Source of the DNA: a virus
Taxonomy: Duplodnaviria > Caudoviricetes
Direction: 5' to 3' (one strand)
DNA: 57,841 nucleotides
Virus record (IMG/VR): IMGVR_UViG_3300030329_003145
Location: 1-57,841 of that record
The notes beneath the pieces are model-generated. The model was not told where the DNA came from. It did no database searches and saw only the letters and a list, made by a program, of their open reading frames with translations. Position 1 is the stretch's first letter; every line of letters begins with the position of its first letter. Both the position numbers and the translations under genes were made by a program. Positions 2,894-47,162 of this stretch are shown one piece after another.

Positions 2894-4191
2894 AAACTTT
2901 GTTCCCGAAACAGGAGGAGGCTTTTGATTTCTTTGTTTACCGACAAACGGGGGATCAGAACACGCTCGACCAGTCGGACCCAGGCACGGGGAAGACGGTA
3001 GTTGCGGTCAAGATGGCAAAGAAACTAGGCCGACCGATTGCGATCATTTGCCCCAAGGCCGTGATACCGGCGTGGAGGAAGGAACTGGAGGAGGAGGGGT
3101 TGACTGCAACCTTTATCCTGAACCTTGAATCCCTGCGGACTGGCAAGTCGGGGTATGTAACGAAGGTGGGGAAGAAGACATTCAAGTGGCTCCTCGACCC
3201 TGAGACGTTGGTCTTCGTGGACGAGATCCACAAATGCAAAGGCCCATTCACCCAGAATGCGGGGCTCCTGATCGCCTTGGTGCAGCAGGGGTACCACATA
3301 CACGGCATGAGCGGGACGAGTTGCGAAGACCCAACCGAGATGCGCCCCCTCGGCCTGATGCTGGATCTCCACAGTGGCAATGAGCGCAAGCCTGGTTACC
3401 TGCGCTGGTGGCCGTGGATGAAGGAATACGGGTGCGCGAAGAACCGATACAACGCATGGGTCTTGGAAGACCCACAGCATTTGCCGAGGTTGCGGGAGAT
3501 CATGTATGCGACCAGCACCCACCGGTTGACGGTTGATGACTTCCCTGACTCATTCAAGTTGAACCGGATATTCGTCACCCCGATGCAATTCCGGTGCAAC
3601 GACCAGATCGTAAAAGCCTACGAGGAACTCAACCTGACCCCCCAGATCATCGAGGACTTCATTGAGAAGGGGACTGTGACCGACAGTGGTCATGTCCTTT
3701 CGGATATCACACGGGCCAGGCGACTGGCAGAGAGTTTAAAGGTTCCTGATATTGCGGAGATGGCCGAGGAGATCATGGCCGATGGCAATTCGGTTGTCCT
3801 GTTCGTCAACTACAGCGAGACGGTGGACGCGCTCCAAGCTCGATTAGGCTGCGACCGGATCGACGGGCGACAATCTGCGGACGAACGGCAACAGGTAATT
3901 GACGAGTTCCAGGCGGATCAAACGCATTGCGTAGTCGTGAACTCTGCGGCTGGAGGGACGGGGATCTCGTTACACGATACGCTAGGCAACCGGCCTCGCG
4001 TGACCCTGATCACCCCGTCATTCTCATTCAAGACATATATGCAGGTTCTCGGTCGCATCCACCGGAACGGCGGGAAGAGTGACGCGATCCAGTATGTTCT
4101 AGTTGCGGACGGGTCAATCGAGGAACAGGTTATGAAGTCGGTGACGAAGCGCATGGATAACTATAACGCCCTGCATCAAGTAAAGAGATGA
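2890..4191 (+). CDS. superfamily 2 (SNF2-like) DNA helicase
   Basis: Walker A PGTGKT, DEIH, SGT, GTGISLH and QVLGRIHR motifs. Confidence 0.9.
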   Translation: MKTLFPKQEEAFDFFVYRQTGDQNTLDQSDPGTGKTVVAVKMAKKLGRPIAIICPKAVIPAWRKELEEEGLTATFILNLESLRTGKSGYVTKVGKKTFKWLLDPETLVFVDEIHKCKGPFTQNAGLLIALVQQGYHIHGMSGTSCEDPTEMRPLGLMLDLHSGNERKPGYLRWWPWMKEYGCAKNRYNAWVLEDPQHLPRLREIMYATSTHRLTVDDFPDSFKLNRIFVTPMQFRCNDQIVKAYEELNLTPQIIEDFIEKGTVTDSGHVLSDITRARRLAESLKVPDIAEMAEEIMADGNSVVLFVNYSETVDALQARLGCDRIDGRQSADERQQVIDEFQADQTHCVVVNSAAGGTGISLHDTLGNRPRVTLITPSFSFKTYMQVLGRIHRNGGKSDAIQYVLVADGSIEEQVMKSVTKRMDNYNALHQVKR

Positions 4192-4612: not shown

Positions 4613-4834
4613 ATGGACTACAAAGACTACAAAGAAGCCGGAAAGATCCTGGACCGCGTCCAGAAAAAGTTGATGGATATTAACAACGACCCGCTGCCAA
4701 GGACCGAAGTTCAACGGTGCAGGTCACTTAATTCGACCCGTAAAAATCTGGATAAGCTACGGGCGATACTCGACCGAGGGCTCTATGCAGACAATGAAGC
4801 CTGCTCGGAGCGTCCGAATACGGTTTTCTTTTAG
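4613..4834 (+). CDS. hypothetical protein
   Basis: ATG at 4613; converges on the stop of the giant gene. Confidence 0.6.
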   Translation: MDYKDYKEAGKILDRVQKKLMDINNDPLPRTEVQRCRSLNSTRKNLDKLRAILDRGLYADNEACSERPNTVFF

Positions 4835-7800
4835 TCGGGAAGCGGGATAAATTGTTCGTCTTTCTCGGCCTCTGCCAGCAGGGCGTCGAGGCGTTTCTTC
4901 CCTCTCTCGGTCTGCATCAACCGCTCTGTCAATACGGGGTTTGGTAGGTATCTCTCTCCGTATCCTGCAAAGGCAAGCTGGACTCGGCGGTCCCCGTACT
5001 TCGCACTCCGCAGGGCGCGATACATATCGCCATCAGACATAAACTTACGGAACCCTGTCAGTGTCCGGTGCAGCCTCCCGTTGAGTCTTAGCAGACTGTC
5101 CCGCGTATCGATGTAGAGATCAGCGGCTTCTGACGGGAGCATGGCATCGTTCTGGAGCAGTTCGTTATAGCGTTGCCTGGCTCGGGTGTATTCATCCCGC
5201 ATCGCGTAAATTGATCTCTCGAACTGGCGGGCGGGATCAACGACCCTCGGGACAACAGGTAGACCCTCACTCAGAATCATACCGAGTGGCGAGTCCAGCC
5301 CCCCACCGTGGCCTCCCTCGATTGCGGCCTTGGAGGCTTCGATAACTTTAGCAGGAGTTCGAGGTCCGTAAGCCTCTTTCAAAACATACATAAGCCGCTT
5401 GCCGGTCTTCAGGGCAAACGGGTCTGTATCCTCGACAATAGGCTTATCCGTAGCCGCGTCCCGATTTTCTTTCACATCGAAAACTGCTCCCGCGAAGATC
5501 TGATCCCCGAGATAAGGATCAAAGATCGCCGTAGTAACCAGCTTCTCGAATCCTTCAATCGGTTCGCCCCTGAACAGATGCTCAGTGAAACGCATGGTCG
5601 GATCAACGAGAACCGAGAACGGGTTCATGTAAGTCAGATCTAAGCTCCGCAGCTTGCCCCCTGCTTTGAAGTAGAAGAACGTATGATTCTTCAGGTAAGA
5701 CGGGAGCGACTCTCGGAGAGCTTCGTCTTCTTCTTCCCCAATTCCACTAACGACCGTCCGCAAGAGGGTTGGGACAACCATACTGAATACACCAACAACG
5801 GATGTGAATCCGACCAAGCGTTTTACCCCCCGACGTTTTATCACTGAGTTTGAATCCGCCAGTTCCTTTCGGATCTGCTTCATAGTATTCGCGGAAATCC
5901 TCGGGATGTCCGCAGTGAACCGGATGAACGGAGCGAGGAGGAGGCCGATCCCCCCACTTGTTATCTTCTTGATGATCGGAGGTGCGCGGTCATACGACTG
6001 AGCGGTTGCAGTCACGATGTCCGCAGCCAGTTTGTCCCGCTGTGATGCGGACATATTCCTGTATTTGCCCTCTTCTGGATCGGTTTCAGCCGCTTCCTCG
6101 ATAATGGCGCGTTCGTTCTCGAAGTAGCCTATCTTATAGAACGAGTCCATTGCCGAGGCTACCCGAGCCGCCATGTTCTTTGCTTCCCGCGCCACACTTG
6201 CGGGGGTCTTCTTGTCGTTGATTACCTTGGACAATTCGTTGAGCTTTTCCTGCACACTGGTCATTGTCTCTTCTCCGCGCATCAGGCGGATCATAAGCTC
6301 TGACCGGATCTCATTGCCGAATACTCCGAGCCCTTGCAGGAAGGACAAATAGGAGTCCGTCTCAGCCTTTGTTCCACTGATAGCCCGTTTCAACATACCC
6401 TTGGCTCCGTATTCCCCGCCTTGGTAGCCAGGAATCAGGATAGCTGCACTCCCTTTCAGGAGTTTGAATGAGTTATACCCTTGCGCGGGGCCAAAGAAGA
6501 GGACGTTGGAGAGCATATTTCGCACATAGAACCCAATCGACAGGAGCGTCTTGGCCCCCATAGAGTAACCGGTGAGCTTGTGCGCGTGTTCCATGATCTT
6601 GTTAAGCCCCTGAGTCGCGGCATCATTGCCTGAACGGGTCTTCTGTTGGAACACGATCTTGAGATCTTCATAGATCTCTGGCGAAGTATACATCCCCGCC
6701 AATGGGTTGAGCCCATCGTCGGCTTTGTCCGCAGCGATCTTCTTGTATTCCAGTTTCGGGTCGAAGTTCTCTTCGTTCCTTTTTCTATTATACTCTTTAG
6801 CACTGAAAAGCCATCCGCCCTCGACTCCTTGAGCCTTAACCGCGTTAAGGAATGACTGATGCGCTGCAATTCGCGCCACTAACCCGAACGAATACAAGAG
6901 GTTGTCGATACTATCCTGCTTGAGGTTATTGGCTCCCATCAGGTTCGCCAATGGCTCCGGTATTTCTGACCGGCCTTGCAGGTTTTCAACTAGCGCACTC
7001 AACCCATTCTGACCTCGGCCAACGATTGATGCAGGAGCATCCGCGAGTTCAAACGCATTACCGAAATCACTGGCTCCGGTAGCCGTGTCGAATGACCGCA
7101 GGAACTCGATCATCATTACCTCACCGAGCGACTGAGTCCCGACCGCTTGCGCGTTGTATTGAGCTTCAGCTTCAACACGGGCGGCGTCAGTGGAGATAGG
7201 CTCCCCTTCAGCCTCTGCTTTTGCTTGGATAGACTTCGCAGTCGTGCCGATGTAGAAGTCGCGCATATACTCGATTGCCGCCATGCGGATATTAATCGCT
7301 TCTTGGGTATCCGCTTCGAGGATCATTCCCACGTAGCTCGGATCACTGAACATCTCGTATCGACGGGTGATGTAGATCCCCATGTTGGTATCGAACTTCA
7401 CACCGATATCAGCCGCGTGTTGCCCGAATGCTTGCTTGGCCGCGTCGGACAGGGAGTCCGTAAGCGCCCTTACGTTGAGGACAACCTTGTAGATCTCGTT
7501 GTGGTTATCCTTGAGGTATTGGAGGCTTTGGTTCCGCTCAGTCTTGATTACCTCAACCGCAGCCATTCGGGCGGCGGTCATGCGGCTCTCGAACTCGTTA
7601 TTTATACGTTCGATCTCCGCTTCTTGTGCAAGTCCGTTCTCTATTTTCTGTTCCTCAGTGGCTCCTCGGTTGGCATTACGAAAGTCAATGTCGGCCTGTA
7701 TTTTAGCCGCGACTTTCTGCTGATGAAGCGACTCTACAAGCTCGGGGTCTACCTGGACATTGTCCGTGGTCCCTGTAGCCTTCTGCACGTATCTCCAGAA

Positions 7801-10800
7801 CTCATCGTCCTCGGGCGGAATGTCCTCCCCGAATTCTTTTGTCAGCGCGGCTCTGTAGTCTGCGTGGAAGTTATCCAACACATCGCCACTGGACTTGATA
7901 AAGTTATCCCGTTGGCGCATGAGCCGTAGGATGACGGGGTCAGTGTCCCCGACAAACATACTCATAAACTTACCGGCCCGTTTGTATGGACCTGCCTCGA
8001 CGACGGGGATTTCCAGCAACCTGATGTAGCGGTCGAAGTCCATCAAGTCGGGGCGGAACTCAACCGGTAAGTCAGACGGCTCCCCGAAGGGGGCGAGTTC
8101 GGGACCGAGCCCTGAACCCAACCCTGTTTCGGCTGTTGAAGCCTCAACGAGCCCTTTAGATTCAGGAATATAGACGACCGCCATGTTACCAATATTGGCG
8201 ACAACTGAGTCGTGGCCTTCGGCCACTAAATCGTCAGCAAACTTGTTTTTAGCTGCTTCGGTAAGATAATCCCACGACCCCAAGCTATCCAGCCACTCAG
8301 ATTGGCTAATATACTTAGGGTTTCTAAGGCTAGTTTTCCAAGCCGCAGTCGCCCCATAAGTACCCGCATAAGACTGGCTGCTGATAAAGAAGTCATGTTT
8401 TCCACTAAGCGCGTTTGGGTCTCCCCGCCTAGAGCCGCGATACAAAACGATATTATTAACGTCGCTAGGAGGCTCAACCGCCCCGAGCCCTGAAAGAATC
8501 CTAGCCGGTCCCTGTTCAGCCTTGAGCCCCCGAAAACTGGGCCTATAAGGAGCAACTTCTTGTTCGCGTAGAACACGCGCCTTGTCTCTTATGCGCGTCA
8601 TCAACCGATCCCACCCCTCCTTTTGGTCTAACCGCCAATGGTGCATGGCGATGGTGTTCGGGTCAGACCCCAAATCTTCGAGCATTATCTTATCGGCTTT
8701 TGTCAGCCTCGCCCCCACCATTTTTGTGGCGGCTATCCAATAGTCTGCTCCCTTTTGAGTTTGTTCCTTACGGGGGGCTAAAGAAAGATCTTCGATCTGT
8801 CCCAAGGCATCCCGAGGAATCCGCGCTCCCATGAGGCCAATGGCTTGGCCCATCTCGTAATCAGAGATCCATCGTTGGGAACGTCCGGCCATGAAGTCCG
8901 ACACACCGCGCCCGTAATCCTGCTGCCTGAACAGGGACTCACCAATTGAAAGAACTTCAGTAAGGGCCGTGTTTTTGCCTGGCTCGAATCCAAGTATACG
9001 TTGGATAATTTCTACGAAACTGTCCCACGCAGACCGGTCTCCCCGCTCAACTTTTATGGTTGCCAGTTCCCTTTGGAACTGCGGGTCCATGAACGCTTGA
9101 GCAATAAATTCATCTAGGTTACCGAGAGCGTAATTAAAGCCTGCACGGGCGGTCGGGTCTGGATTACGCCTCGATACTTTACCCCCGATGGTTTTTGCGG
9201 CTCCCCCTTGGTCGATAACATGGAGATAAAGATCAATTAATTCCCTGACAGGTTGCGAAACCGCGTCACCGCTAATACCCGCTTTGCCTGTTTTGGCAAT
9301 TTTCCTTAGTGACTTTAAATACAGTTCCCCTTTGGGATTTCGTATGTGCCTATGAACTTCAAGCCATAACTTCTTAGTGGACAACGCATGAACAATCTCA
9401 TGGGCAATTGTGGAAAGACTTTCTCCGTCACTTAGGTGAATTGCATCACCACCATAACTGTAATACGCCCGCTCCAGGCGTGGGTTTACAATTACGTCTA
9501 CTGTATCAAATGCCTCGGGGAAGTCTTTTTTGAACTTGGTGATTAAGTCTATATACGCCTCGCTATTAGCCCCCCCGTAACTACCGGTAAGCTCCGAAGG
9601 TCTCGTTGCCAACGTCCCTCCTCCTAACTTTTTGTCCGCAATAGCGTCCACCAACTCCCCTATCGTCATGCTCCCATGCGTACCCCGCAGCCGGTTAGCA
9701 AAATCGGGGTCCATATCAGCGAGTTTCCTGATCCTGCCGCTGTCTTTTTCATCGTACCCCCGACGCTTATATGTCCAGCGGTCTAACGCTGTGGCCCCGC
9801 GTCCTCCCACTCCCATCATCCTTTTGTGAGCCGCTTGCGCTTCTAAGCCACGCTCGGCTAGTGCTCCCCGCCATGCTTTTTCGATGATGTCCACAAACCG
9901 TCGTTCGTCTTCGATAAGGCGACCATCATCAAAGCGCACCCCGTCGTTGGTCAGTCCTTCTATCATCCGGTCGAATTCCATCCCGTTTCCGTCCCAGAAG
10001 CCAGCCTGAAGAAAACTCTCGTATTCTTCAAACTGCTCAACCTTGCGAATGTTATCTCTCCGGTTTATTATGTCCTGTTCAAGTATATCGAGGTGATCTG
10101 ATATCCTAACCAAGATAGCTTGTCCCATCCTACTGGTGGATTCGGACGGGTCAGCCCATACCTCTTTGAAATTCTGGTAATCTTTCGGGTCACCACGGTC
10201 CCAGCCGGACAATTCAAGAAGCGCGAGCCCCTTTACTTTAGCCACAACCGTTTCTCCAACCGGCATGAGCCCTGAACCCAGAGCCCTTGGGGGTTGGATG
10301 TCAGCGTATTGGCGATTTCCCTTTTTAGATATCGGGTAAGGATTGGGTTCCCTGACCACATCTGAAAGCACGTAGCCATACTTCTTCCCCTTAGTGTCAA
10401 ACTTACTGCCTTCTTTGACGAGGTGCTTGTCTTCGTCAGCCCTGAAAGATTCGATGTCGGGGTAGACGATTGGTTCGTCTCCAATAGTCGCGTAGCCAAC
10501 GACTACAACAGGGCTTTTACCAGACCGGATAATCCCGACACGCTGCCCCAAGAATGACTTGAGTGTATTCCTTGACCGCGTCTCGATGGTTTTTTCACCG
10601 TTGAGGATCTGTTCTGTAAACGATTGGGTTCCGTCGTTTATGTAGATGCCCTTAGTTACGGGACCGAGCCCTGAACCCAGAGCCGCGCCTCCTGTAAGCG
10701 GGGGGTTGTCCAGGGTAACGTCTTCGTTCTTGGTGATGACGATGGTCGTGCGACCCTTTTTCTGAATTTTGGACCCTGTAGGGATCGTGACCGTGAACCC

Positions 10801-13800
10801 TTCGCCAAGGGTCTCTTCAGCGTATGTCTTTAGTTCTTCTTTATTGAACCCTTTCTGGTAAGTGAGTTCGCCGCTTTTCTTTCGGATAACTTCTAGTTCT
10901 CCGAATTTAAGGAACGGGGCCGCACCGCCTGCAACATCTTTCCCCCTAGTAACGACCACGGCCTCGCCTCCCACTTCAAGGTGGTTGGCAATATCCTTGA
11001 GGATAAACTCACGGGTCTGCGGCTCGACTACATTAAGAACAAAAGTATTCAGGATGTTAGGATACTGCTTGTCTATCGAGTCCCCTTGCCCAGCCGCACG
11101 GTCTCCAGTGTATGTCGGGGTGAAGGTGTCAGGAGGGAATGGTTCAAATGAATCTGCTCCGAGCGCCTTGGACGCCCCACCTGTGCCGTCGCCGTATACC
11201 AGTCCACGACCATCTTCGTAGTCTTTTTTGGAGATGATTCCACTGATCTTGAGATCTTCGTGGATTGTTGTGTTTGGGTTTTGCGTTTTCCCAGCCCTGA
11301 TATCGATAGCAAGGAACAGGTCGCGGTTCATCGTAACGCCCTTCTCGTCGATCAGTTTCTGAGCAGCCTTCTGGTTCAGTTCCACGGACTTCTGATCCGC
11401 GCCGACCTCGGTCGCTTTCTTAACGGCGTCAACGAAGGACGATTCAGCAGGCCCGAGCCCTGAAGCCAGGCCCGCGCTCTTGAGCGTCGCGCCCCCTCTG
11501 GGAGGTCTCCAAAGTTGAAGACCGTCCAAGGCTACCCCATCAACAAGATCCGAATGCATCTGTCGGATTAAGTGCATGAGTTGGGGGTCAGTAATCCCTT
11601 CCACCTTATGTTCCTCCCATGTTCCGTCAGCCTTGCGCCAACTTATCTCTTCTTCCAGTTCGTCTTCTATTATCTCTTTCCACGATTCAAACTTTTCTTC
11701 AATCCACGCCTCGGGGTCTTCGATCATCACATCGTCGCTTATACGAAACTCAGTGAACCCTAACGCCCTGAAATAATTAATCTTATCCATCCCCTTTACA
11801 GACAAAACATAATCTCGTTCCTGTGCGAGGGCTTCCTTCGCTGGGCCGTAAGGGTCTAGCTTGCCCCCGGAGTCAGGAAACTGGATAGTAAGAGTGACTC
11901 CCGAATCGTCAGCCCGCTTTATAATTTCCTCCATCAGGGCTTGCCCTACACCCTGCCCCCTCAAATGTCTGGGGACAAAGATATTCGATATAATGATCTC
12001 AGCACGATAAGGAGAGGCACCGCGCTGGTATTTACCATTTACGATTTGTCGATCGGCGGACCCCTCATCGGGTCTCGCGGCGACAAACCGAACTAGCCCA
12101 TCCGTGAGGTAATCCTCGCCGGTCGCCGGGTCAAAGGTGCCGGTACCCCCGAGCATCGCTGGATCAACAGTAGTAACCCCAACAGTATCGGCTAGGGTAA
12201 GGGGTTCAGACATTGTACCTAACTCCCGTATATTTCGGAGTCCGTTTTCAACAATTGTATCTATGTCAAGGTCTACCCCAGCAGCAAACCCTGTCTGGTA
12301 ATCCCTAGGAAAATTAGTGGGGTCGTATGGTATATCAGCAGGACCGAGCCCTGAAGCAGCCGCCCTTCTGGGCTCTTCGTAGGGCTCAAGCGACTTGTTC
12401 ATGCCGAGTTGCTTCCGAAGCTGTTCCAACGTGGCCGTTGGGTTGTTCGGGTCGAATGCCATCATATTGGAGTGGTAGACATACCCTGCCTCCATCCCTC
12501 GGATCTCTGCGACTATCCTAGTAATCGCGGCCTGAAGCTGTGGAGAGAACTGTTTGCGGGTCTTGTTGGACCCCATCCTATTCAAGAGTGACTTGAAATA
12601 ACGTGTGACCATCGGCCTTGCGCCAGGATTCTTGGCAAGGAAGAGCACGCTCTCCTCGGTCGTGAACCCACGGATTACCCGCTGGGCGTGTTGCCGCAGC
12701 ATCTCTTCAACGATCTGCAACTTTACTGCGCGGTTATTATCTCGGAACCCGCGCCTCATTTTTTCCCTAGTCTCCTCAATCTTTTTCCCGCCGCCATAAT
12801 CATTGATAGTCCGCATGGCGTCTTCCTCAGTAAGCTGGTCGATCAATACATTGATCTCAGCTTCGGAGATAACCGCGACCGATGCCGCGTGTGCGTGTTC
12901 TTCATTAAGAACAACCCCGATGATTTCCGCGACGGGGACTGGTTCACCGCCATTATACAGCACTATAGATTCGATGAAGTTAAACATCGCCTCGGGGTTA
13001 ACTCTCATTACCCCCGATTCAGAATCTACTTCGGCCATGCCGTCGAGGGTCTCATCAACGACCACCTCAACTTCTGGCGGGGATAGCCGCCGTGCAACCT
13101 CGGCGTATCGTTCTTTAACCGCCTCCCGTCGTCTCTGCTGGGCAACATCCAGGCCGGTTGCACCCTGCAACGCGGATGCTAATCTTGCACCGTTGTTGCG
13201 GGAATTTGATACTTCTTCGGCAACCTTAGACGCAAGATTATCCGCCGTGAGGCGTCTCTTGGGAGAGGTGTTAACTATTACCGGTGCCGCTGGAAACACG
13301 GCGTTAGCAATAAACGATTTTGCGCGGGCGGGAATAGTCTTCAAGGCACTGAGCCCCTCTTCCTGCAAAGCAGCAAATTCATCAAAGGTCATATCAACCT
13401 CTCGTCGGGTTGAGGGCCGACCCGCAAATACAGCGGCGTGAGACAGGTCCAATACCGCAGAAAATGCTTTTCTGAACTGTGGGTATTGAGTCCTCTGGAT
13501 GTTAAACAGACCGAGGATCGCGTCTACGATCCTTTGGAACATACTCCTCGGCGTTCCAATAGCCCGTGCGGGGTCGGACAGAACTTTGACGGCCTGCTGG
13601 AATTCCGTTGAAGTCAGGAAGTGCGCTATAAACTCGTCTGTATTTTCGAGCGCCTCGTAGACACGCGGGTCGTGATTATCGAAGGCCGTGCTAACATATA
13701 TTCCGCCCGTGAAGCTAAGAGCATCGCTGGACTGGTATGCAAACTGATCTTTTACGCGGGCTATCAGCCCCTCCAGTGTCCTCAACGCTGACCGCTCTTG

Positions 13801-16800
13801 GCGCGTCAACTCAGCTTCTGGCTTACGGGTAATCCCCGACACATACGCATGGGTCAGTTCGTGGAGTAGCGTGTCTGCGACTCCGCGTGGGTTATACCCG
13901 TTGATATTGATCGAGATTGCGCGGGTGCCATCATCTTGAATGCGGAGTCTACCAGCATACTCTAGCCCCGTCTCATCAATCGTGAACGCAATGTCATTTA
14001 TGAAACTGGGGTTCTGGATAAGGAGTCGGGCGAGCGCAACAAGGTGGGCGTCGTAATCAGTTTCGGCGCGGTCAGACACACCAATGATTCTGCGAAGCGC
14101 CTCAAGAATAGAGTCAGGGTTTCCGGTTTCGAGGCCCAAGGCAGCAATCGCTGCAAGGTTCTCTGCTTGTACTTCCGCCCTCGTCATGCTCGTCGGCTGA
14201 GACCGGAGGTAAAGGTCGCCTGCTGCTTTTTGCACGGAAGATATGAACTCGTCTGTTTGCCCAGAGTCTGGCTCTTGACCGAGCAATTCGCGCAAACGGT
14301 CGTTTATTACCCCACGGTATACAGGGTCTGTCTTAGGGTCTCCCTCGATGGCCTGCGAAGACAGGGACATTATCTGAAGTGCCTGGCGAACCGCCGTCCC
14401 CATTTCGTATTTACCACTCTTCAAATCACGCTGGAAAGTCAGACTGGCAGAGTTGGCGCGGTTATTGCCCTGTGCCATCCACTGGACAAACAACCCCCAC
14501 GCTTCCTTGTTGGTCATCTTCGAGAAGTTGATCGAAGACGACGCATATACTTGTGACTGGATAATCTCCAAAACGTCTCTCCGCAGTGCAGGGTCTGCGG
14601 CCATCGCCGCGACGGCGTCCGACTGCATCTCCTTGATCATGTTGGAAATCTTCCTGACCGGAAGTTGTGGTAGAGCTTCCTGCGGGTAAGGCGTATACGG
14701 ATCAGAGATTTCCTCGGCGGCGGCGAAGTCGGGGTTGTTCTGCAAGTTCGACGCTTCGTCCAATGCAATAGTCGCCACATACGTCTCCTTCTGATGCTTG
14801 AGCCGCGTAGCCTGAATCTCCATATACTTCCCTGTTACTTCGCGCCCCACAGCAACGAGTGATACAGGCTCGCCCTTCATAAGGGACTCTTGTGCTCTGA
14901 GTTTCAGTTCGATCAGGGCCGTATCCCGCAGTGCGGGGGTGAGGTCACCACTGTCGAGGGTCGGGAGGAACGGGTTCAGTTCTTCGTCGGTGGATACCCG
15001 CGACATTGCTTCGTCATAAGTAATCTTCTCGTCGGGGTTGAACGGAGAAGTGATAAGCAGTTCCACCAATCCTTCTGGTGCATCCGGCTCCCCTTCTCTT
15101 GCTTCCCGAAGATCTGTAACCCTACGGATCAATGCGGACAAACCGGTGTGGTCTTCTCGCAGGTTGAGTGCGTGTTCGGCGGATGTGAGCGCGGATACAA
15201 GGCCACCGGATTCAGGGACCACGATGTCGGACACGACAAACTTGTTGCCAATCCTGGCGAACCGGAATGCAGGGTTCAGGGTGGGGGAGGTTAAAGCCTC
15301 CACCGGAACTTCAACCGGAGCCCCCTGCTCTATTAGTCCGAGCATACTAGCGGGGTCGTTATTAAACCGCCCCACGCCATTTGCGTCGATGACCGCCCTG
15401 ACCGGACCATACGAAGGCACTGAAGCTCCACCACTGGGGGTCTCTTGCGGGATGACGGGAAAACGGGCTGCAATCTGGTCGGCAATACGCTGGGTGCTCT
15501 CTTCGAGGAACTGGTCAGACAATGTCCGCACACTCACGGGTACCCCGAGTCTCCTCAACTTGGCGGCGGTAAGAATATGCGGGTAGCCACTTTCGATAAG
15601 CCGCTCGATGGCCGTTTCTTCGGCGGGTGCAACGGGCTCTTCTTCGACTTCGATTTCCTGTTTGACCCTGAATTCTTTTAAGGCCGTGATCCGGTCACGA
15701 AATGCCTGGCGTGTAAGAGCTTTAGCAGCCTCGGGGCTTACGGCGCGGCCTTCCTGCACGGCTTTATCCAATGCCTGTTGGACTGCGGGGACGGTCCCCG
15801 TGGCTGATTGCGCCTCTATGTCTCGGGACAGTTTCTGGTAGAACTCTCGTTTCTGGTTTATCTCCTTAACCTGCTCCCTGAACCGTGCTTCGACTGCCTT
15901 CGCCTCTTCGGTTCGTTCGGGGTCAATGATAATGCGGACCTTGGGGTCAGCCAGCGGCTCCAGCTTGGCTTCGACGGATTCTCCTTTCTGACCAGTAGCG
16001 AGTTCACGAACGGCTTGGTGGTCTGAATTTTCGACAGAACTGGATTCAATCGGGTTCAGCCCAAGCCCACTCATCAACGCGCCCTTGATTCTTACGGTCG
16101 CTGGGTCCGCGCCGGATACCACGGGGGTTTCTTCCGCGAGAACTTGGCTCATGGCCGACTTAATGGAAGTCGGGTTGACTGTGTCTTCGGGGAAAAGATC
16201 CAGTTGAGCTGACTCAGGAGGATTAGCTGGGCGAGAGGCGCGGAACATAGGGGGGATCGTGAGGGTTCCTGGCGCTGCTTCTTTTGCTAGGCGCTTGATC
16301 TCGGCTTTAACTTTTTGTCCGTGGACCCTGACTGCTGAGAGGGGCATCCCCGTAGTGTTGGCTACGAAACTTAAATAGTCTTGGTCACGGGTTGAACGAG
16401 TCCTCTGGGCCGTGATGTAAGCGGCTCTATCAATGTCGCTCTCAAAAAAGAGTTCAAACCTCTTTTGACCATAAGAATACCTTGGTTTAGCTCCTGCCAA
16501 ATCCCGTGGAAGTTTTGGCTCTCGCCATGTTACCGTGTCAGCATCCCACACAAATCCAGCGGGGGGTTCTGCAACCGGCTCCTCCGTAGGTTCTGCAACC
16601 GGCTCCTCCGTAGGTTCTGCAACCGGCTCCTCCGTAGGTTCTGCAACAGGTTCAGCCGCAGGTTCTGCAACAGGTTCAGCCGCAGGTTCAGCCGCAGGTT
16701 CAGCGGCAGGTTCAGCCGCAGGTTCAGCGGCAGGTTCTGCAACAGGTTCTGCAACAGGTTCAGCCCCCAACGCCTCTCTGAAATCAATAGCCGCTTTCTG

Positions 16801-19731
16801 GGTCTCAGTCAGGACTCCGTCTTCGGGGACCGCGTCCGCTGCCTTTGCCTCATTGAGAATCTGCGGGACCGCCATTCCTGCCAGAGGGCCAGAAGTTGGC
16901 TCCACGGGTTCAGCCACAGTTTCAGCGGCGATAGCGGGGGGCGCTGCTGCTGCCGCCTCTCTAGCGGTATCCTTGCGCCCCCGTTCTGCCAAAGCATCAC
17001 GGATAGCTTGAGCCGCCTTCGGTGCATCACTTTTCTCCAGATCGCTGACAGTCTCATTAATCACAGCGTCAATAAATGACGCCTGTCGCTGCATCTGGTA
17101 AGGGTCGGCACGAAGAATACGGGCAGTCCCCCTGATAAGCGGCACCGACCCACCCATGACGCCCCCCAAGGCGGCTGCGCGGAACGTCTGCTCCATGCGC
17201 TCGATCATTGGGGTATGCTCATGTAGCGCGGCGTCGGTAAACAGCACGTTGACGAACTCATCGATGCCTTCTTCAAATCCTTCGTGGGCTATTGATTTGG
17301 CCACGCCTGTGATTGGCCCCGCAACCGTGGAATGTTTTTTCATCAAGGTTGCTAATGACTCTTTAACCTTGTCAAACAGAGGCACCTCCGTTTGTGCGGC
17401 CCCGACCTTGACTTTATCGGGCATATGCCGAAGCCGTCCTTTTAAAACTTCAGCGACAGCCTTCATTTTCTTATATGAAAGCCCGCGCATGAGCGCACTT
17501 TCCAGGCCCCCCATCCCAATCTTGGAAAAACTAGCCGTAAGCAACCCCGTAAAAGTAGCCGCTTGAAGCCCTGCCCCGAGGGCGCGGTCGTGTGCGTCTT
17601 CTTTGGATACGCCTTGCTCAAGGAGTTGGTTGTATACCACGCCGTAGGTAGACCCTCCCGATCTCATACCGGAAGTGATAAAGATGCCTCTAGTGGGGCC
17701 AATCTTTAATACGTTTGCCAGCTTACCATTGTAAGCATTAAGAAGATCCACGACGCTATCAACGCCCGCTTCGCCATCCACCGCTTTGACAAGCTGTTTT
17801 TTCAAGTCTGGTTTGGCAGTCCCCTTAGCCGCACCGACACCTAGTATTTTTTTGGCCTGCTCGCGCACCCCGCCAGCAGTAGATGTCCTGAACAGATTGG
17901 TCGTCAGGGCTTTGCCGAGCCCTCTCACGGTAAACTTAGCAGTGGCCGAAGCTCCCCCTGTAACTGCGGACTTGGCCCCGAGGTAGGCAACACCACCTAC
18001 CCCGCCTGCTGGGGCAGTTGCTACAGTCAGTAGAGCGGTAGCCGCAATGTCAGTTAGCAGGGGGAATGTGGTTTCCATAGCCTCCTGCCAAAACCCAAAT
18101 TCGTCCCCGAATAGTTTGGCCATTTCCCTCTGCTTGGCCTTTCGTTTTGGGATCGTGGCGAGATAATCCATAGCCACCTCATTTTCAAACCCAATTGCGG
18201 GGATTGCGGCGATTAACGTGCCACCTGCATCGACAAGAGACATCCCGATTCCTTTGGTCCTCTCCCAAGTCTCCTTCCAGTTGTCCTCGTCAGTAAGAAA
18301 TTCTTCGAGGATTTCGTAGTTTTCCATCCCCGCAGCGTGGCCCGCCATCAACGCTTGTTGCCATTCATCAGTCAAATGAGTTTGCCTGAGAAAATCATTC
18401 GCGGATTGGAATCGGGATTTGAGTTGATATACGCGCTGTTTAGACAATCGGTCCTTTGCGCTGTCGCTAAGGTCGGGTCGCTGATCCAGCGCGGCTTCAA
18501 ACAAGTCCTTATTTAAATAAAGCTGAGTAGGCATATGTGGGAGGCCATACCCACCGGTTCGTATATTTTTGCCCAGCTCTTCTTCGTCTTTATGATACTT
18601 ATAAATCCCCTTATCGACGCCCTCTTCAAGCACTACTTGGCGAAGCGCGGGGAGAACATCTGATGCGTTGTAGCCCAACTCAGCCGCGTAACGTGCGGCG
18701 AGTTCATTAATGTCCGTCCCCCTGGCCCCTCTTACGGCGGCTTCACGCTGGTCAGCTTTATCTCCCTCTTCGAGTCTTTTTACAACGTCGCTAGAACTAA
18801 TCTCGTCCAGAGACTTGCCCCGAATCTTGCCACCCCAATAAGCGAGACTGCCTATAGCCACATCTGTCACCCCTTTAAAAATTCTCCCAAGTGTTGACAT
18901 TGCCCCCCGCTCCAACCTGTCTCCAAGATCAAGCTCAGTTCCTGCCTCGCGCATGGCTAGCCCTTCAGTCAGAATCTGAAATTCATTGTTAAGCCTAACT
19001 TCCTCTCGAAGCTGGGCATGAATTTCCATCACCCGCTCAAGTTTATAGCGGGGAACGCGAAACCCATCAGGAATCTCCATGAGTTGTTGAACTCGTAGAG
19101 CATCCCGCATCGTGACTCCTGCACCCGCAGAACTCTTGACTGCATCACTGAGCCCCATCGTCTCAATTGAGTCTCCGATGACGAGTTCACCTGAAGACAG
19201 TTTGGCTATGGGGATCTCTCCCGAAAGAACGCGGTCTTCCAGAAGGCGGTCGTGATTTTTCGATAAGACTTGTTCAGCATCTGATTTGAGCCGCTGAACA
19301 GTTTTTAAGTATTCTTCAGTCGGGTCCGCTACTTTAGCTGCTGCCAGGTAATCTGTAAGTGTCTGCCATTCGGGGTCTTCATAACTCAAGGAGTCCCTGA
19401 GATACTTCGCCTGCTGATCGAAAGTGCCACGGCCATCGAACGCTGCTGATCTCGCGTTGATCTCGTCTATATTAGACCCATCTTCCAGAAGCAGCCCATC
19501 GTCTCGAAGAGAAGTAGCAAACCCCATGCTAATCTCCTGTTCAACTTCAGGGGTATACGAGTCAGCATTGATGTATTGCTCCCTGATATAGTCCCCAAAC
19601 CTTACTCGGCTCTCCAATGGGTCTTCGTAAACATTTTCTGTTGACCATTCAGAATACGGTTTCGGAGCGACAAGTTCCGATTGCCCTTCGAGGGCTTCAA
19701 CACGGTCGATGAAATTAAGTAGCTCTGACAT
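4831..19731 (-). CDS. giant (4,966 aa) polyvalent internal-virion/ejection protein with zincin, GNAT, SAM-MTase, ASCH and ART-like domains
   Basis: Uninterrupted 14.9-kb ORF at the end of a late operon. Motifs: zincin HELTH (13849-13863) and HEIVH (9388-9402); GNAT IFVPRHLRGQGVGQALM; MTase VYGDGTG...NTFVLNVV; ASCH ILNGEKTIETR; ART-like LYRG...FFISSQSYAGTYG...GHDSV. Confidence 0.85.
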   Translation of the reverse strand: MSELLNFIDRVEALEGQSELVAPKPYSEWSTENVYEDPLESRVRFGDYIREQYINADSYTPEVEQEISMGFATSLRDDGLLLEDGSNIDEINARSAAFDGRGTFDQQAKYLRDSLSYEDPEWQTLTDYLAAAKVADPTEEYLKTVQRLKSDAEQVLSKNHDRLLEDRVLSGEIPIAKLSSGELVIGDSIETMGLSDAVKSSAGAGVTMRDALRVQQLMEIPDGFRVPRYKLERVMEIHAQLREEVRLNNEFQILTEGLAMREAGTELDLGDRLERGAMSTLGRIFKGVTDVAIGSLAYWGGKIRGKSLDEISSSDVVKRLEEGDKADQREAAVRGARGTDINELAARYAAELGYNASDVLPALRQVVLEEGVDKGIYKYHKDEEELGKNIRTGGYGLPHMPTQLYLNKDLFEAALDQRPDLSDSAKDRLSKQRVYQLKSRFQSANDFLRQTHLTDEWQQALMAGHAAGMENYEILEEFLTDEDNWKETWERTKGIGMSLVDAGGTLIAAIPAIGFENEVAMDYLATIPKRKAKQREMAKLFGDEFGFWQEAMETTFPLLTDIAATALLTVATAPAGGVGGVAYLGAKSAVTGGASATAKFTVRGLGKALTTNLFRTSTAGGVREQAKKILGVGAAKGTAKPDLKKQLVKAVDGEAGVDSVVDLLNAYNGKLANVLKIGPTRGIFITSGMRSGGSTYGVVYNQLLEQGVSKEDAHDRALGAGLQAATFTGLLTASFSKIGMGGLESALMRGLSYKKMKAVAEVLKGRLRHMPDKVKVGAAQTEVPLFDKVKESLATLMKKHSTVAGPITGVAKSIAHEGFEEGIDEFVNVLFTDAALHEHTPMIERMEQTFRAAALGGVMGGSVPLIRGTARILRADPYQMQRQASFIDAVINETVSDLEKSDAPKAAQAIRDALAERGRKDTAREAAAAAPPAIAAETVAEPVEPTSGPLAGMAVPQILNEAKAADAVPEDGVLTETQKAAIDFREALGAEPVAEPVAEPAAEPAAEPAAEPAAEPAAEPVAEPAAEPVAEPTEEPVAEPTEEPVAEPTEEPVAEPPAGFVWDADTVTWREPKLPRDLAGAKPRYSYGQKRFELFFESDIDRAAYITAQRTRSTRDQDYLSFVANTTGMPLSAVRVHGQKVKAEIKRLAKEAAPGTLTIPPMFRASRPANPPESAQLDLFPEDTVNPTSIKSAMSQVLAEETPVVSGADPATVRIKGALMSGLGLNPIESSSVENSDHQAVRELATGQKGESVEAKLEPLADPKVRIIIDPERTEEAKAVEARFREQVKEINQKREFYQKLSRDIEAQSATGTVPAVQQALDKAVQEGRAVSPEAAKALTRQAFRDRITALKEFRVKQEIEVEEEPVAPAEETAIERLIESGYPHILTAAKLRRLGVPVSVRTLSDQFLEESTQRIADQIAARFPVIPQETPSGGASVPSYGPVRAVIDANGVGRFNNDPASMLGLIEQGAPVEVPVEALTSPTLNPAFRFARIGNKFVVSDIVVPESGGLVSALTSAEHALNLREDHTGLSALIRRVTDLREAREGEPDAPEGLVELLITSPFNPDEKITYDEAMSRVSTDEELNPFLPTLDSGDLTPALRDTALIELKLRAQESLMKGEPVSLVAVGREVTGKYMEIQATRLKHQKETYVATIALDEASNLQNNPDFAAAEEISDPYTPYPQEALPQLPVRKISNMIKEMQSDAVAAMAADPALRRDVLEIIQSQVYASSSINFSKMTNKEAWGLFVQWMAQGNNRANSASLTFQRDLKSGKYEMGTAVRQALQIMSLSSQAIEGDPKTDPVYRGVINDRLRELLGQEPDSGQTDEFISSVQKAAGDLYLRSQPTSMTRAEVQAENLAAIAALGLETGNPDSILEALRRIIGVSDRAETDYDAHLVALARLLIQNPSFINDIAFTIDETGLEYAGRLRIQDDGTRAISININGYNPRGVADTLLHELTHAYVSGITRKPEAELTRQERSALRTLEGLIARVKDQFAYQSSDALSFTGGIYVSTAFDNHDPRVYEALENTDEFIAHFLTSTEFQQAVKVLSDPARAIGTPRSMFQRIVDAILGLFNIQRTQYPQFRKAFSAVLDLSHAAVFAGRPSTRREVDMTFDEFAALQEEGLSALKTIPARAKSFIANAVFPAAPVIVNTSPKRRLTADNLASKVAEEVSNSRNNGARLASALQGATGLDVAQQRRREAVKERYAEVARRLSPPEVEVVVDETLDGMAEVDSESGVMRVNPEAMFNFIESIVLYNGGEPVPVAEIIGVVLNEEHAHAASVAVISEAEINVLIDQLTEEDAMRTINDYGGGKKIEETREKMRRGFRDNNRAVKLQIVEEMLRQHAQRVIRGFTTEESVLFLAKNPGARPMVTRYFKSLLNRMGSNKTRKQFSPQLQAAITRIVAEIRGMEAGYVYHSNMMAFDPNNPTATLEQLRKQLGMNKSLEPYEEPRRAAASGLGPADIPYDPTNFPRDYQTGFAAGVDLDIDTIVENGLRNIRELGTMSEPLTLADTVGVTTVDPAMLGGTGTFDPATGEDYLTDGLVRFVAARPDEGSADRQIVNGKYQRGASPYRAEIIISNIFVPRHLRGQGVGQALMEEIIKRADDSGVTLTIQFPDSGGKLDPYGPAKEALAQERDYVLSVKGMDKINYFRALGFTEFRISDDVMIEDPEAWIEEKFESWKEIIEDELEEEISWRKADGTWEEHKVEGITDPQLMHLIRQMHSDLVDGVALDGLQLWRPPRGGATLKSAGLASGLGPAESSFVDAVKKATEVGADQKSVELNQKAAQKLIDEKGVTMNRDLFLAIDIRAGKTQNPNTTIHEDLKISGIISKKDYEDGRGLVYGDGTGGASKALGADSFEPFPPDTFTPTYTGDRAAGQGDSIDKQYPNILNTFVLNVVEPQTREFILKDIANHLEVGGEAVVVTRGKDVAGGAAPFLKFGELEVIRKKSGELTYQKGFNKEELKTYAEETLGEGFTVTIPTGSKIQKKGRTTIVITKNEDVTLDNPPLTGGAALGSGLGPVTKGIYINDGTQSFTEQILNGEKTIETRSRNTLKSFLGQRVGIIRSGKSPVVVVGYATIGDEPIVYPDIESFRADEDKHLVKEGSKFDTKGKKYGYVLSDVVREPNPYPISKKGNRQYADIQPPRALGSGLMPVGETVVAKVKGLALLELSGWDRGDPKDYQNFKEVWADPSESTSRMGQAILVRISDHLDILEQDIINRRDNIRKVEQFEEYESFLQAGFWDGNGMEFDRMIEGLTNDGVRFDDGRLIEDERRFVDIIEKAWRGALAERGLEAQAAHKRMMGVGGRGATALDRWTYKRRGYDEKDSGRIRKLADMDPDFANRLRGTHGSMTIGELVDAIADKKLGGGTLATRPSELTGSYGGANSEAYIDLITKFKKDFPEAFDTVDVIVNPRLERAYYSYGGDAIHLSDGESLSTIAHEIVHALSTKKLWLEVHRHIRNPKGELYLKSLRKIAKTGKAGISGDAVSQPVRELIDLYLHVIDQGGAAKTIGGKVSRRNPDPTARAGFNYALGNLDEFIAQAFMDPQFQRELATIKVERGDRSAWDSFVEIIQRILGFEPGKNTALTEVLSIGESLFRQQDYGRGVSDFMAGRSQRWISDYEMGQAIGLMGARIPRDALGQIEDLSLAPRKEQTQKGADYWIAATKMVGARLTKADKIMLEDLGSDPNTIAMHHWRLDQKEGWDRLMTRIRDKARVLREQEVAPYRPSFRGLKAEQGPARILSGLGAVEPPSDVNNIVLYRGSRRGDPNALSGKHDFFISSQSYAGTYGATAAWKTSLRNPKYISQSEWLDSLGSWDYLTEAAKNKFADDLVAEGHDSVVANIGNMAVVYIPESKGLVEASTAETGLGSGLGPELAPFGEPSDLPVEFRPDLMDFDRYIRLLEIPVVEAGPYKRAGKFMSMFVGDTDPVILRLMRQRDNFIKSSGDVLDNFHADYRAALTKEFGEDIPPEDDEFWRYVQKATGTTDNVQVDPELVESLHQQKVAAKIQADIDFRNANRGATEEQKIENGLAQEAEIERINNEFESRMTAARMAAVEVIKTERNQSLQYLKDNHNEIYKVVLNVRALTDSLSDAAKQAFGQHAADIGVKFDTNMGIYITRRYEMFSDPSYVGMILEADTQEAINIRMAAIEYMRDFYIGTTAKSIQAKAEAEGEPISTDAARVEAEAQYNAQAVGTQSLGEVMMIEFLRSFDTATGASDFGNAFELADAPASIVGRGQNGLSALVENLQGRSEIPEPLANLMGANNLKQDSIDNLLYSFGLVARIAAHQSFLNAVKAQGVEGGWLFSAKEYNRKRNEENFDPKLEYKKIAADKADDGLNPLAGMYTSPEIYEDLKIVFQQKTRSGNDAATQGLNKIMEHAHKLTGYSMGAKTLLSIGFYVRNMLSNVLFFGPAQGYNSFKLLKGSAAILIPGYQGGEYGAKGMLKRAISGTKAETDSYLSFLQGLGVFGNEIRSELMIRLMRGEETMTSVQEKLNELSKVINDKKTPASVAREAKNMAARVASAMDSFYKIGYFENERAIIEEAAETDPEEGKYRNMSASQRDKLAADIVTATAQSYDRAPPIIKKITSGGIGLLLAPFIRFTADIPRISANTMKQIRKELADSNSVIKRRGVKRLVGFTSVVGVFSMVVPTLLRTVVSGIGEEEDEALRESLPSYLKNHTFFYFKAGGKLRSLDLTYMNPFSVLVDPTMRFTEHLFRGEPIEGFEKLVTTAIFDPYLGDQIFAGAVFDVKENRDAATDKPIVEDTDPFALKTGKRLMYVLKEAYGPRTPAKVIEASKAAIEGGHGGGLDSPLGMILSEGLPVVPRVVDPARQFERSIYAMRDEYTRARQRYNELLQNDAMLPSEAADLYIDTRDSLLRLNGRLHRTLTGFRKFMSDGDMYRALRSAKYGDRRVQLAFAGYGERYLPNPVLTERLMQTERGKKRLDALLAEAEKDEQFIPLPD
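8101..12357 (-). repeat. six dispersed in-frame direct repeats (core GAGCCCTGAA, encoding SGL[G]P) bounding domain cassettes
   Basis: Core at 8107, 8485, 10267, 10666, 11455 and 12346; spacings 378, 1782, 399, 789 and 891 nt. Confidence 0.9.
16562..16765 (-). repeat. 12/24-nt tandem repeat encoding a (PAAE/PVAE/PTEE)n linker
   Basis: GGTTCTGCAACCGGCTCCTCCGTA-type 24-mer x3 followed by AGGTTCAGCCGC-type 12-mers. Confidence 0.9.
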
Positions 19732-46885: not shown

Positions 46886-47162
46886 CTACAGTAATATTAG
46901 GTTGTTTCTCTGAAGGGATCTTCGTCAGTTTATGCAAATCATTGATAGCATCACGGTAGCCTGCATACCAAGCATGGCGCATCCCATTGCTTTCAGTATT
47001 CTGCAAAGTATTAAACGACGGTCCAGCTAATTCTTTAAGCGTAGCCGCCGCCTTCTGAAAAGCCCCCGATTCCAATATCTCCTTCAACTCCTCAACAGAA
47101 GCACGGTCTTGATACCACCGGTCCAGAGGAACAGGGGGAGTAATAGGTTTTTGTTTAGGCAT
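46863..47162 (-). CDS. small head-module protein
   Basis: 99 aa between portal and scaffold; AWYAGYRDAINDL helix. Confidence 0.65.
   Translation of the reverse strand: MPKQKPITPPVPLDRWYQDRASVEELKEILESGAFQKAAATLKELAGPSFNTLQNTESNGMRHAWYAGYRDAINDLHKLTKIPSEKQPNITVDEWTHIE

Follow-up and report, generated by a model that had tools for sequence, protein, structure and literature searches.

Introduction

The closest described counterparts of the protein considered here are the polyvalent proteins of Iyer et al. (PMC5512222), described for phages and conjugative elements as giant polypeptides in which virion-associated regions are joined to unrelated effector domains (ART-PolyVal, methyltransferase, GNAT and zincin). 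We analyzed 57,841 nucleotides (nt) of viral DNA (Duplodnaviria; Caudoviricetes; IMG/VR record IMGVR_UViG_3300030329_003145, positions 1 to 57,841), referred to below as the window, which is the genome, or a large part of the genome, of a phage that we describe as marine. Its largest gene, an open reading frame (ORF) of 4966 amino acids (aa) on the minus strand (4831–19731; ORF list and translation), holds a row of enzyme cassettes separated by a short repeated joint, S-G-L. We consider it likely that this row is a hypervariable payload region (4.2 kb) of a polyvalent protein, in which cassettes are exchanged at the joint by homology-guided recombination, and that the joint peptide is probably a cleavage site for a zincin peptidase.

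The giant protein belongs with the polyvalent proteins as they are characterized in PMC5512222, being one very large phage polypeptide with several unrelated domains (GNAT, a TehB-like methyltransferase and two HExxH zincin regions). Signature PolyVal domains were found in homologous giant proteins, with PF18760 above its cut-off in a cassette of the related locus L115 and precomputed for P0007, P0009 and P0012, and in a separate window gene, with PF18818. The giant ORF of the window itself matched no PolyVal model at threshold in Pfam and gave language-model leads only. The consulted text of PMC5512222 describes no conserved joint between domains, and the strings "linker" and "shuffl" occur in it 0 times. 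What appears to be new relative to the polyvalent proteins is that every cassette boundary has a joint peptide specific to its lineage, that one lineage spells it with invariant DNA, and that cassettes are exchanged there. In open-access full text, excluding supplements, we found no prior description of a repeated joint, either DNA or peptide, in phage polyvalent proteins.

In MARTX toxins, known from Vibrio and related bacteria, an internal protease cuts between the effectors, and the cysteine protease domain cleaves after Leu; we know of no report of a DNA-invariant joint between MARTX effectors. Their conserved N- and C-terminal ends flank a row of swappable effectors, and the set differs between strains by gene exchange (PMC5218395, PMC5555677). 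Conserved ends and a variable center were also found in the giant protein and its relatives. However, Pfam (E ≤ 1), run on the entire protein and on eight pieces of it, detected neither glycine-rich RTX repeats nor an inositol-phosphate-activated cysteine protease domain, and the protein is therefore not a MARTX member in spite of similar working. In contrast to MARTX, the candidate protease here is of the zincin type, and the effectors would travel in a phage particle to a bacterial target.

In polymorphic toxins a short conserved boundary peptide such as VENN or DPxGL marks the toxin module, and in Rhs proteins it is also the site of self-cleavage. A boundary motif of Rhs and CdiA proteins that is both recombination landmark and cleavage site has the same double role that we propose for the joint. 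Variable toxin modules of CdiA, Rhs and MuF proteins are exchanged by recombination with cassettes (PMC3482391). CdiA and Rhs proteins swap a single C-terminal module together with an immunity gene, whereas in the giant protein several internal cassettes, each with a joint on both sides, lie between two scaffolds, the second of which adds 1094 aa after the array. The array is one open frame with no immunity-like ORFs inside it.

Integrons and shufflons require a dedicated tyrosine recombinase and structured or inverted sites, and integron cassettes are whole genes. The giant gene resembles them in the gain, loss and reordering of cassettes at a short repeated site, and a sequence-only reading of the window had compared the repeat to an integron or shufflon built into one ORF. 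That comparison did not hold up. No IntI was found among the 45 window ORFs of at least 100 aa, the core is a direct repeat of nine bases that is not self-complementary, and the cassettes are in-frame domains without starts or stops of their own. As regards shufflons, all six cores lie on the same strand, a recombinase was likewise missing from the 45 ORFs, and the variants show no inversion; cassettes are inserted, lost or placed in another order instead.

The joint and its spelling

The 10-mer GAGCCCTGAA occurs on the plus strand at 8107, 8485, 10267, 10666, 11455 and 12346 and nowhere else in the window (6 matches where 0.14 are expected, a number that none of 100 shuffles attained). All six copies are in frame within the minus-strand ORF and are always read as TCA GGG CTC, encoding the joint peptides SGLGP, SGLGP, SGLGP, SGLMP, SGLGA and SGLGP at residues 2460, 2757, 3020, 3153, 3747 and 3873. 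Given the codon usage of the ORF itself, the probability that six S-G-L triplets share any one spelling is P = 3.5e-10. In the direction of translation the repeat scan and the translation place the nine-base core TCAGGGCTC on the minus strand at 12346–12354 (joint 1, S2460-G-L, from the scaffold to the GNAT cassette), 11455–11463 (joint 2), 10666–10674 (joint 3), 10267–10275 (joint 4, followed by M-P) and 8485–8493 (joint 5, followed by G-A). Joint 6 (8107–8115, minus strand), between the last cassette and the C-terminal scaffold, comes from the repeat scan and from contigs of two sequencing runs, X15 and X18, the former of which also supports joint 4; relatives have an orthologous S-G-[LIV] at the position of joint 6. 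The positions and the single spelling reported in the sequence-only reading were thus confirmed, its intervals of 297, 263, 133, 594 and 126 codons are as it gave them, and the three longer pairwise identities that it listed at the joints were all seen in the sequence.

Synonymous variation occurs in the codons after S-G-L (GGT or GGG for Gly; CCT, CCC or CCG for Pro), and SGV and SGI sites inside cassettes are spelled TCG GGA GTC and AGT GGA ATC, unlike the joints. The window joints share 9–24 identical bases, and their flanks form a patchwork of pairwise identity.

Several other occurrences were set aside. Relatives do not conserve a seventh SGL (residue 1221), whose codons are AGT GGG CTT, and on both counts it is ruled out as a joint. 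The 9-mer is also present at 21301, within another ORF and out of its frame; this copy is attributed to chance, as is TCAGGGCTC found 367–402 nt past the stop of the giant ORF in L112 and L114–L116, which is one identical site with the same flanks in near-identical contigs, with no open frame through the stretch. A scan of viral contigs for the extended joint TTCAGGGCTCGGNCC returned 99 stretches with a single match in every one listed, a chance-like and uninformative result. A mechanism based on restriction sites (GGGCTC is a GRGCYC site, and TCAGGGATC, the core of a sister lineage, contains GATC) was also set aside; the window has 40 GRGCYC sites against 64 expected, and GATC is nowhere depleted.

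Relatives and cassette turnover

Relatives were collected with the C-terminal 1094 aa as query and up to 10 kb of upstream sequence added, which gave 11 loci in viral contigs and 34 in metagenome contigs. Removal of 12 contained loci, L124 and L141 left 31 loci besides the window, which is itself L111. For most of the relatives blastp similarity ends at query residues 2442–2531 and restarts at 3862–3906, which correspond to the first and last joints. These limits define an N-terminal scaffold (residues 1–2459; 12355–19731, minus strand) and a C-terminal scaffold (residues 3876–4966; 4834–8106, minus strand). The N-terminal scaffold is 93–98% identical to the window in P0003 and P0006 and about 40% identical in a sister lineage with S-G-I joints; the C-terminal scaffold is about 96% identical in P0003 and P0006, 82–83% in L112–L116 and 43–46% in the S-G-I lineage.

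The space between the scaffolds measures 17–43 aa in nine loci without an array (L010, L011, L132–L134, L138, L139, L142 and L144). In L007 and L008 it is about 630 aa long, and the remaining loci range from about 670 aa up to about 2035 aa, the value for L005. The array therefore has a fixed single insertion point in a conserved giant protein. The array-less relatives show no such motif at the scaffold junction, and every array is open and in frame across 2900–5000 codons. The insert of L007 and L008 (about 630–650 aa) has no repeated joint motif of any kind.

Between the scaffolds the payload differs widely. The window array is GNAT, methyltransferase, ASCH, zincin and ART-like, where ART stands for ADP-ribosyltransferase. 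Two relatives closer than any of the contig loci came from the protein database: P0003, with scaffolds 93% and 96.5% identical to those of the window, has ART, methyltransferase and ASCH, and P0006, with scaffolds 98% and 96% identical, has ASCH and ART. In the closest lineage (L113–L116, C-terminal scaffolds 82–83% identical to the window) the arrays end in ART, methyltransferase, ART, ART, methyltransferase and zincin (L114), in ART and ART (L115), and in ART (L113); the ART label of the L115 cassette comes from PF18760 (E 4.4e-11, 44.1 bits against a cut-off of 31.2). All 18 joints of this lineage and the window read TCAGGGCTC. The C-terminal scaffolds of L113–L116 are 98–99.8% identical to one another, with 99–100% of codons the same, yet four different tails precede them. 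Cassette turnover is faster than point mutation.

A clean difference separates two close relatives in the S-G-I group: L126 equals L004 (94–97% identical) plus one methyltransferase cassette of 249 codons, which lies between two copies of GGCTCTGG(C/G)TTCAGGGATCAC. As a side observation, L126 also carries, outside its giant gene (18450–18486), the 9-mer TCAGGGTTC five times at a spacing of 7 bases. Reassortment is seen as well. The methyltransferase tail DNPPLTGGAALG is joined to five different heads, the methyltransferase head is preceded by three different tails and the head of the C-terminal scaffold by five, and tails and heads are always reassorted across S-G-L or S-G-I. In a count that is independent of the motif, 140 of 374 ends of high-scoring segment pairs (HSPs) among 20 proteins fell within 5 aa of a joint, whereas 1000 randomizations gave 18 on average and never more than 32.

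Cassettes have also moved between diverged phages. The methyltransferase of L126 is 69–73% identical to that of the window, against 43–46% for the scaffolds, and an ART cassette of P0006 shares 269 of 310 aligned residues with one of L005, against about 45% for the scaffolds. The latter identity stops exactly at S-G, after which one protein continues with L-A-P and the other with I-T-V. At conserved residues with four or more synonymous codons, the fraction with the same codon in the window and L114 is 0.63 in the scaffold, 0.88 in the zincin cassette and 0.92 in the first methyltransferase copy; the cassettes are younger than the scaffold.

Breakpoints at the joint are thus shown for the insertion, deletion, duplication and reordering of cassettes and for their passage between diverged phage lineages. 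The sequence-only reading had asked whether the number and order of domains vary in related contigs with breakpoints at the repeat, and such variation was found. Its view of the repeat as a recombination joint is borne out by in-frame gain, loss, duplication and reordering there, and has to be qualified for a share of the breakpoints that lie elsewhere, considered further below.

Contigs from independent samples

Part or all of the array was found in 20 public runs from 6 studies, 7 of these runs being possibly source samples. Contigs of four runs with partial arrays (X9, X12, X15 and X18, from four studies) were aligned to the window, with reverse complements read by hand; such contigs show that variant forms exist, not how abundant they are. 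The X15 and X18 contigs, which come from two other studies, follow the C-terminal scaffold of the window to exactly 8115, the end of the core at 8107–8115, and beyond it run into the ART tail FDPTQESILR. An X15 contig begins to match the window at 10267, precisely where the core at 10267–10275 starts, and on the other side of this point has the ART head GPVAEIDANY. The X15 and X18 contigs give no cover of 8302–10254, and this absence of cover is no evidence. X9 and X12 contributed short pieces at least 99% like the window, with no variant information beyond an indel in the methyltransferase head in X9.

All relatives are metagenome assemblies, and it must be asked whether the variation is an artefact of chimeric contigs joined at repeats shared by co-occurring strains. 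The ART tails, about 110 nt long and 85–98% identical, would be enough to mislead short-read assemblers. We nevertheless find this explanation very improbable. The window arrangement was present at 0.97–1.00 of sampled words in 8 runs of 3 studies (7 of the runs possibly source samples), arrays of the L004/L126 type and of the L001/L005 type recur in separate collections, and the clusters of P0003, P0006 and P0009 are made up of 5, 6 and 17 sequences. The 9–24 identical bases shared by window joints are below the usual assembly k-mers, and an open frame over thousands of codons in every array also speaks against chimeras.

Joints of other lineages

In the sister lineage, with scaffolds 43–46% identical to those of the window, the joint is S-G-I, mostly followed by T, and 15 joint sites read TCAGGGATC, one base from the window core. 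Other S-G-I joints keep the peptide with changes at wobble positions (TCCGGCATC, TCCGGTATT, TCGGGTATC, TCAGGAATC and TCGGGCATA). More distant relatives have boundary words of their own: P-x-L-E-T-[RKQ]-[FIV]-G in P0008–P0010, D-I-R-F-Q-P in P0007 and I-R-F-[MS]-P in P0012. The DNA of L147–L149 was added for these lineages; a search of the prior loci for ETRFG or IRFxP had given one match only, not at a joint. The L-E-T-R-F-G joints of L147 and L148 use codons freely (for example GAA ACA AGA GTA GGT, GAG ACA CGC TTC GGT and GAA ACA AGG TTC GGT).

Because the S-G-I peptide is kept in spite of codon drift and the L-E-T-R-F-G codons are free, the joint peptide is itself under selection. From these comparisons of sequence, a short lineage-specific boundary peptide is a general, selected feature of the protein family, and the frozen joint DNA is special to the window lineage and in part to its sister lineage. 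The conserved synonymous spelling put forward in the sequence-only reading stands for the closest lineage and fails in the others, where S-G-I codons drift and L-E-T-R-F-G codons vary. Whether avoidance of restriction lies behind the switch from L to I is a separate matter: the window core contains GGGCTC, the L005 and L006 lineages spell TCAGGGATC, and such avoidance might account for the change. GRGCYC sites number 0 in L006 (1–23396; about 39 expected) and 8 in L005 (1–23393; about 33 expected).

These observations give some weight to the view that the joint matters as a peptide only, whether it serves as a protease site or as a flexible linker. Its identical DNA would then be a passive leftover of recent common origin with no role in recombination, and viable recombinants would simply be those that keep domains whole. 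Free codons in the L-E-T-R-F-G lineage and drifting codons at many S-G-I joints, where cassettes vary all the same, agree with this view, as do boundaries of homology away from joints. In our judgment it is unlikely. Since no two cassettes of the window are related, the joints cannot have been copied together with them; even so, the three wobble bases are the same in the six window joints and in all 18 of the lineage. Between the scaffolds of the window and L114, by comparison, just 39 of 99 conserved triplets have every codon unchanged. The patchwork of identity in the flanks is also unlike a passive remnant. In the last ten codons before the joint, the methyltransferase cassettes of the window and L126 have a nucleotide identity of 0.93 and a third-position identity of 0.80, against about 0.4 across the cassette. 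Lastly, divergence in the contigs described above starts at the exact edge of the 9-mer. Identical wobble bases together with breakpoints at exact core edges argue that homology at the joint is used in exchange. We therefore return to homology-guided exchange as the preferred reading, with the qualification that DNA identity is not required for turnover, since the L-E-T-R-F-G lineage turns over without it. The identity would be a lineage-specific sign of, and aid to, such exchange.

A possible route of exchange

In the mechanism that we propose, two conserved scaffolds would flank an in-frame row of unrelated enzyme cassettes, each closing with a flexible tail and then the S-G-L joint, always TCAGGGCTC in the window lineage. 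Exchange would proceed by ordinary homology- or microhomology-guided recombination with no dedicated site-specific system, through unequal crossing-over between co-infecting relatives, between sister genomes or within one genome. The substrate would be the 9-base core with 10–100 bases of conserved tail. Repeated exchange may then homogenize the joints (concerted evolution), and their identity may in turn favor further in-frame exchange. In T7-type phages, deletions are known to arise between short direct repeats of this size. The ART tails are 37 codons long (about 110 nt) and in five comparisons have a DNA identity of 85–98%, with 95% across lineages.

An invariant short core at every boundary, a clean indel of one cassette between two cores and divergence exactly at core edges would also be expected of a dedicated system in which a recombinase recognizes the 9-base core, as in an integron or shufflon. 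We rate this as highly unlikely. A scan of the 45 window ORFs of at least 100 aa (E ≤ 1e-3) found no catalytic domain of an integrase, resolvase, invertase or transposase, the only related match being a helix-turn-helix. The cores are direct and on one strand, and the 9-mer, read from the sequence, is not self-complementary. Cassettes are exchanged in the sister lineages too, where the joints are not identical, and the conserved tails of 30–110 nt beside the core fit homology-guided exchange. The lack of a recombinase among the scanned ORFs, the direct and non-self-complementary cores and the conserved tails together favor general or microhomology-guided recombination.

A possible cleavage site

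The sequence-only reading had also suggested that the joint could be a processing site for zincins of the protein itself. We think that the joint peptide is most likely a zincin cut site that would release individual effectors, and three candidate proteases can be named: an HExxH domain in the N-terminal scaffold, the zincin cassette of the array and a separate ArdC-like metallopeptidase (MPTase). Iyer et al. 2017 predict that zincin MPTases process polyvalent proteins (PMC5512222). No other peptidase family was found in the 45 window ORFs scanned.

The zincin-like region of the N-terminal scaffold (13342–14214, minus strand) was assigned from its HExxH motif (HELTH at residue 1957), an AlphaFold2 (AF2) model and structural matches. 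The HExxH is kept in 16 of 18 listed relatives and is EExxH in L007 and L008. The model, built from 13 sequences, has a predicted local distance difference test score (pLDDT) of 77. Its best structural match is the zincin (catalytic) domain of anthrax lethal factor (Z 7.2), with further matches to a PhiM1 ejectosome protein (Z 5.7) and several zinc peptidases (Z 4.4–5.5). The separate gene, at 53563–54453 on the plus strand, combines ArdC-N (PF08401, E 8.4e-24) with an MPTase-PolyVal zincin (PF18818, E 3.6e-30). It is of an anti-restriction type and might act on the giant protein in trans.

The C-terminal part of the protein matches gp123 of Cellulophaga phage phi18:3 (22% identity, E 4e-14), whose record is annotated as a virion protein from tandem mass spectrometry. 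Together with the ORF list, the translation and the PF18760 cassettes of relatives, this match suggests a polyvalent protein that is probably internal to the virion and would travel in the capsid, to be ejected together with the DNA when the host is infected. Two further remote matches bear on delivery, that of the zincin cassette to PDB 9sfn_G and that of the scaffold model to the PhiM1 ejectosome protein. In a preprint on phage phi24B, a 2811-aa large polyvalent protein is part of the virion proteome and its ejection is proposed (10.64898/2026.04.10.717836). A search of PHROGs with eight pieces of the protein gave weak matches only ("virion RNA polymerase", E 6e-4; "virion structural protein", E 0.005), which we did not use as evidence.

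Points that weigh against exchange and cleavage at the joint

Several points count against the reading that we prefer. As regards exchange, a distance of more than 15 aa separates 139 of the 374 HSP ends from a joint; many of these ends fall within ART cassettes and others at the edges of extracted scaffold pieces. In the run contigs a third divergence starts at 12383, 28 nt before joint 1, with the tail variant YEEVEEPALA, which is also present in P0006. Cassettes of the L-E-T-R-F-G lineage vary without DNA-identical joints, and in assemblies such as those used here shared tails of about 100 nt at 85–98% identity could in principle yield chimeric contigs. The data cannot separate a repeat that promotes recombination from one at which only the recombinants joined there survive.

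As regards packaging and cleavage, placement of the protein in the virion leans on remote homology, at the 22% identity given above, to a protein verified by mass spectrometry. Support for the zincin fold in the scaffold is modest, with a Z of 7.2 below the caution line of 8 of the comparison tool, and Foldseek gave no match of the scaffold model in the PDB at E ≤ 1e-3. Array-less relatives keep the scaffold HExxH as well, so this domain is not solely for array processing, and S-G-I arrays such as that of L001 have no zincin cassette. Cleavage at the joint is plausible from the conserved peptide and the zincin candidates.

A further-reaching idea can be offered only tentatively, and we think it somewhat doubtful. 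In it the joint would be dual-purpose, with nine bases acting as an in-frame recombination joint, kept identical by selection for evolvability, and the encoded peptide serving as a cleavage site that frees each effector after ejection. In-ORF cassette arrays would then be a protein-level counterpart of integrons without an integrase, and the lineage words (SGL-GP, SGI-T, LETRFG, DIRFQP and IRFMP) might co-evolve with the protease.

The individual cassettes

The domain labels given in the sequence-only reading fared unevenly, those of the GNAT and zincin cassettes being the best founded. Cassette 1 (11464–12345, minus strand; 297 codons including the joint) is a GNAT acetyltransferase-like domain with a match to PF00583 above the cut-off (E 1.4e-4, 22.6 bits against 20.7). 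It is missing from the arrays of L114, P0003 and P0006, and X15 contigs cover it.

Cassette 2 (10675–11454, minus strand) resembles S-adenosylmethionine methyltransferases of the TehB type by weak matches, to Pfam TehB at E 0.02 and, with a six-sequence profile, to PDB 3m70 at E 0.005. Cassettes of this type are present in two copies in L114, in one in L126, and also in P0003, P0004, P0005 and P0007. Within its head a stretch of 38 nt (11377–11414) is replaced in the X15 and X18 contigs by two other letters, a net difference of 12 codons; X9 contigs have loose ends at the same positions, and L114 and P0003 also have a shorter methyltransferase head there.

Cassette 3 (10276–10665, minus strand) is ASCH-like on weak grounds, with a Pfam match below the cut-off (E 0.08). 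The motif GEKTxETR, which we take to match the ASCH signature, is invariant in 4 homologues, and the cassette also occurs in P0003, P0006 and P0008–P0012. Neither phmmer with the methyltransferase and ASCH cassettes nor a profile of the ASCH cassette found a match in the PDB.

Cassette 4 (8494–10266, minus strand) is a zincin module with HEIVH at residue 3444 and a paralogue of the scaffold zincin, to which hhalign aligned it with 92% probability (E 5e-7) over a stretch containing NxDEF. Its profile matches PDB 9sfn_G, an "Internal virion protein" (E 3e-6), and L114 holds a copy that is 78% identical.

Cassette 5 (8116–8484, minus strand) is possibly an ADP-ribosyltransferase of the ART-PolyVal type, a weak assignment suggested by language-model features (0.92) that relate it to clusters with PF18760. 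Pfam gave no match for it, hhalign against the ART cassettes of six relatives gave a probability of 3.6%, and the AF2 model from the single sequence (pLDDT 41) was unusable.

The ART-PolyVal cassettes of relatives (L114:959–1789, L115:869–1408, L005:4667–5527 and others) have a near-invariant head of about 30 aa, AEVDANYMAAVEAGDMETAQRMVDEA, a variable middle and a near-invariant tail of about 34 aa, IKSADPITRDADGNVIPLSQRFDxTQxSILR. Because conserved head and tail flank a variable middle, exchange may also take place inside these cassettes.

Other features of the window

Besides the giant gene, the window encodes a terminase large subunit, a family A DNA polymerase, a primase, a helicase, a PD-(D/E)XK/DUF2800 exonuclease, a C-5 cytosine methylase and an amidase. 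The C-5 cytosine DNA methylase gene (47162–48040, minus strand; PF00145, E 1.2e-31) is another likely anti-restriction function. In the N-terminal scaffold a run of AEP[VA]/TEEPV repeats (16570–16677, minus strand; residues 1019–1054) matches the PT disordered repeat PF04886 (E 1.2e-6), and P0003 differs from the window in length at this run.

Implications

Polyvalent proteins are thought to be a main way in which phages and plasmids bring ready-made counter-defence enzymes into the cell. A defined joint gives a simple rule by which such giant proteins can be divided into functional units and their cassettes catalogued as candidate anti-defence effectors. It also predicts exact cleavage sites that can be checked by mass spectrometry, and it offers a natural point of in-frame exchange for phage crosses. 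The lineages with frozen joint DNA and those with free codons constitute a natural experiment on whether sequence identity at the boundaries speeds the evolution of modular proteins.

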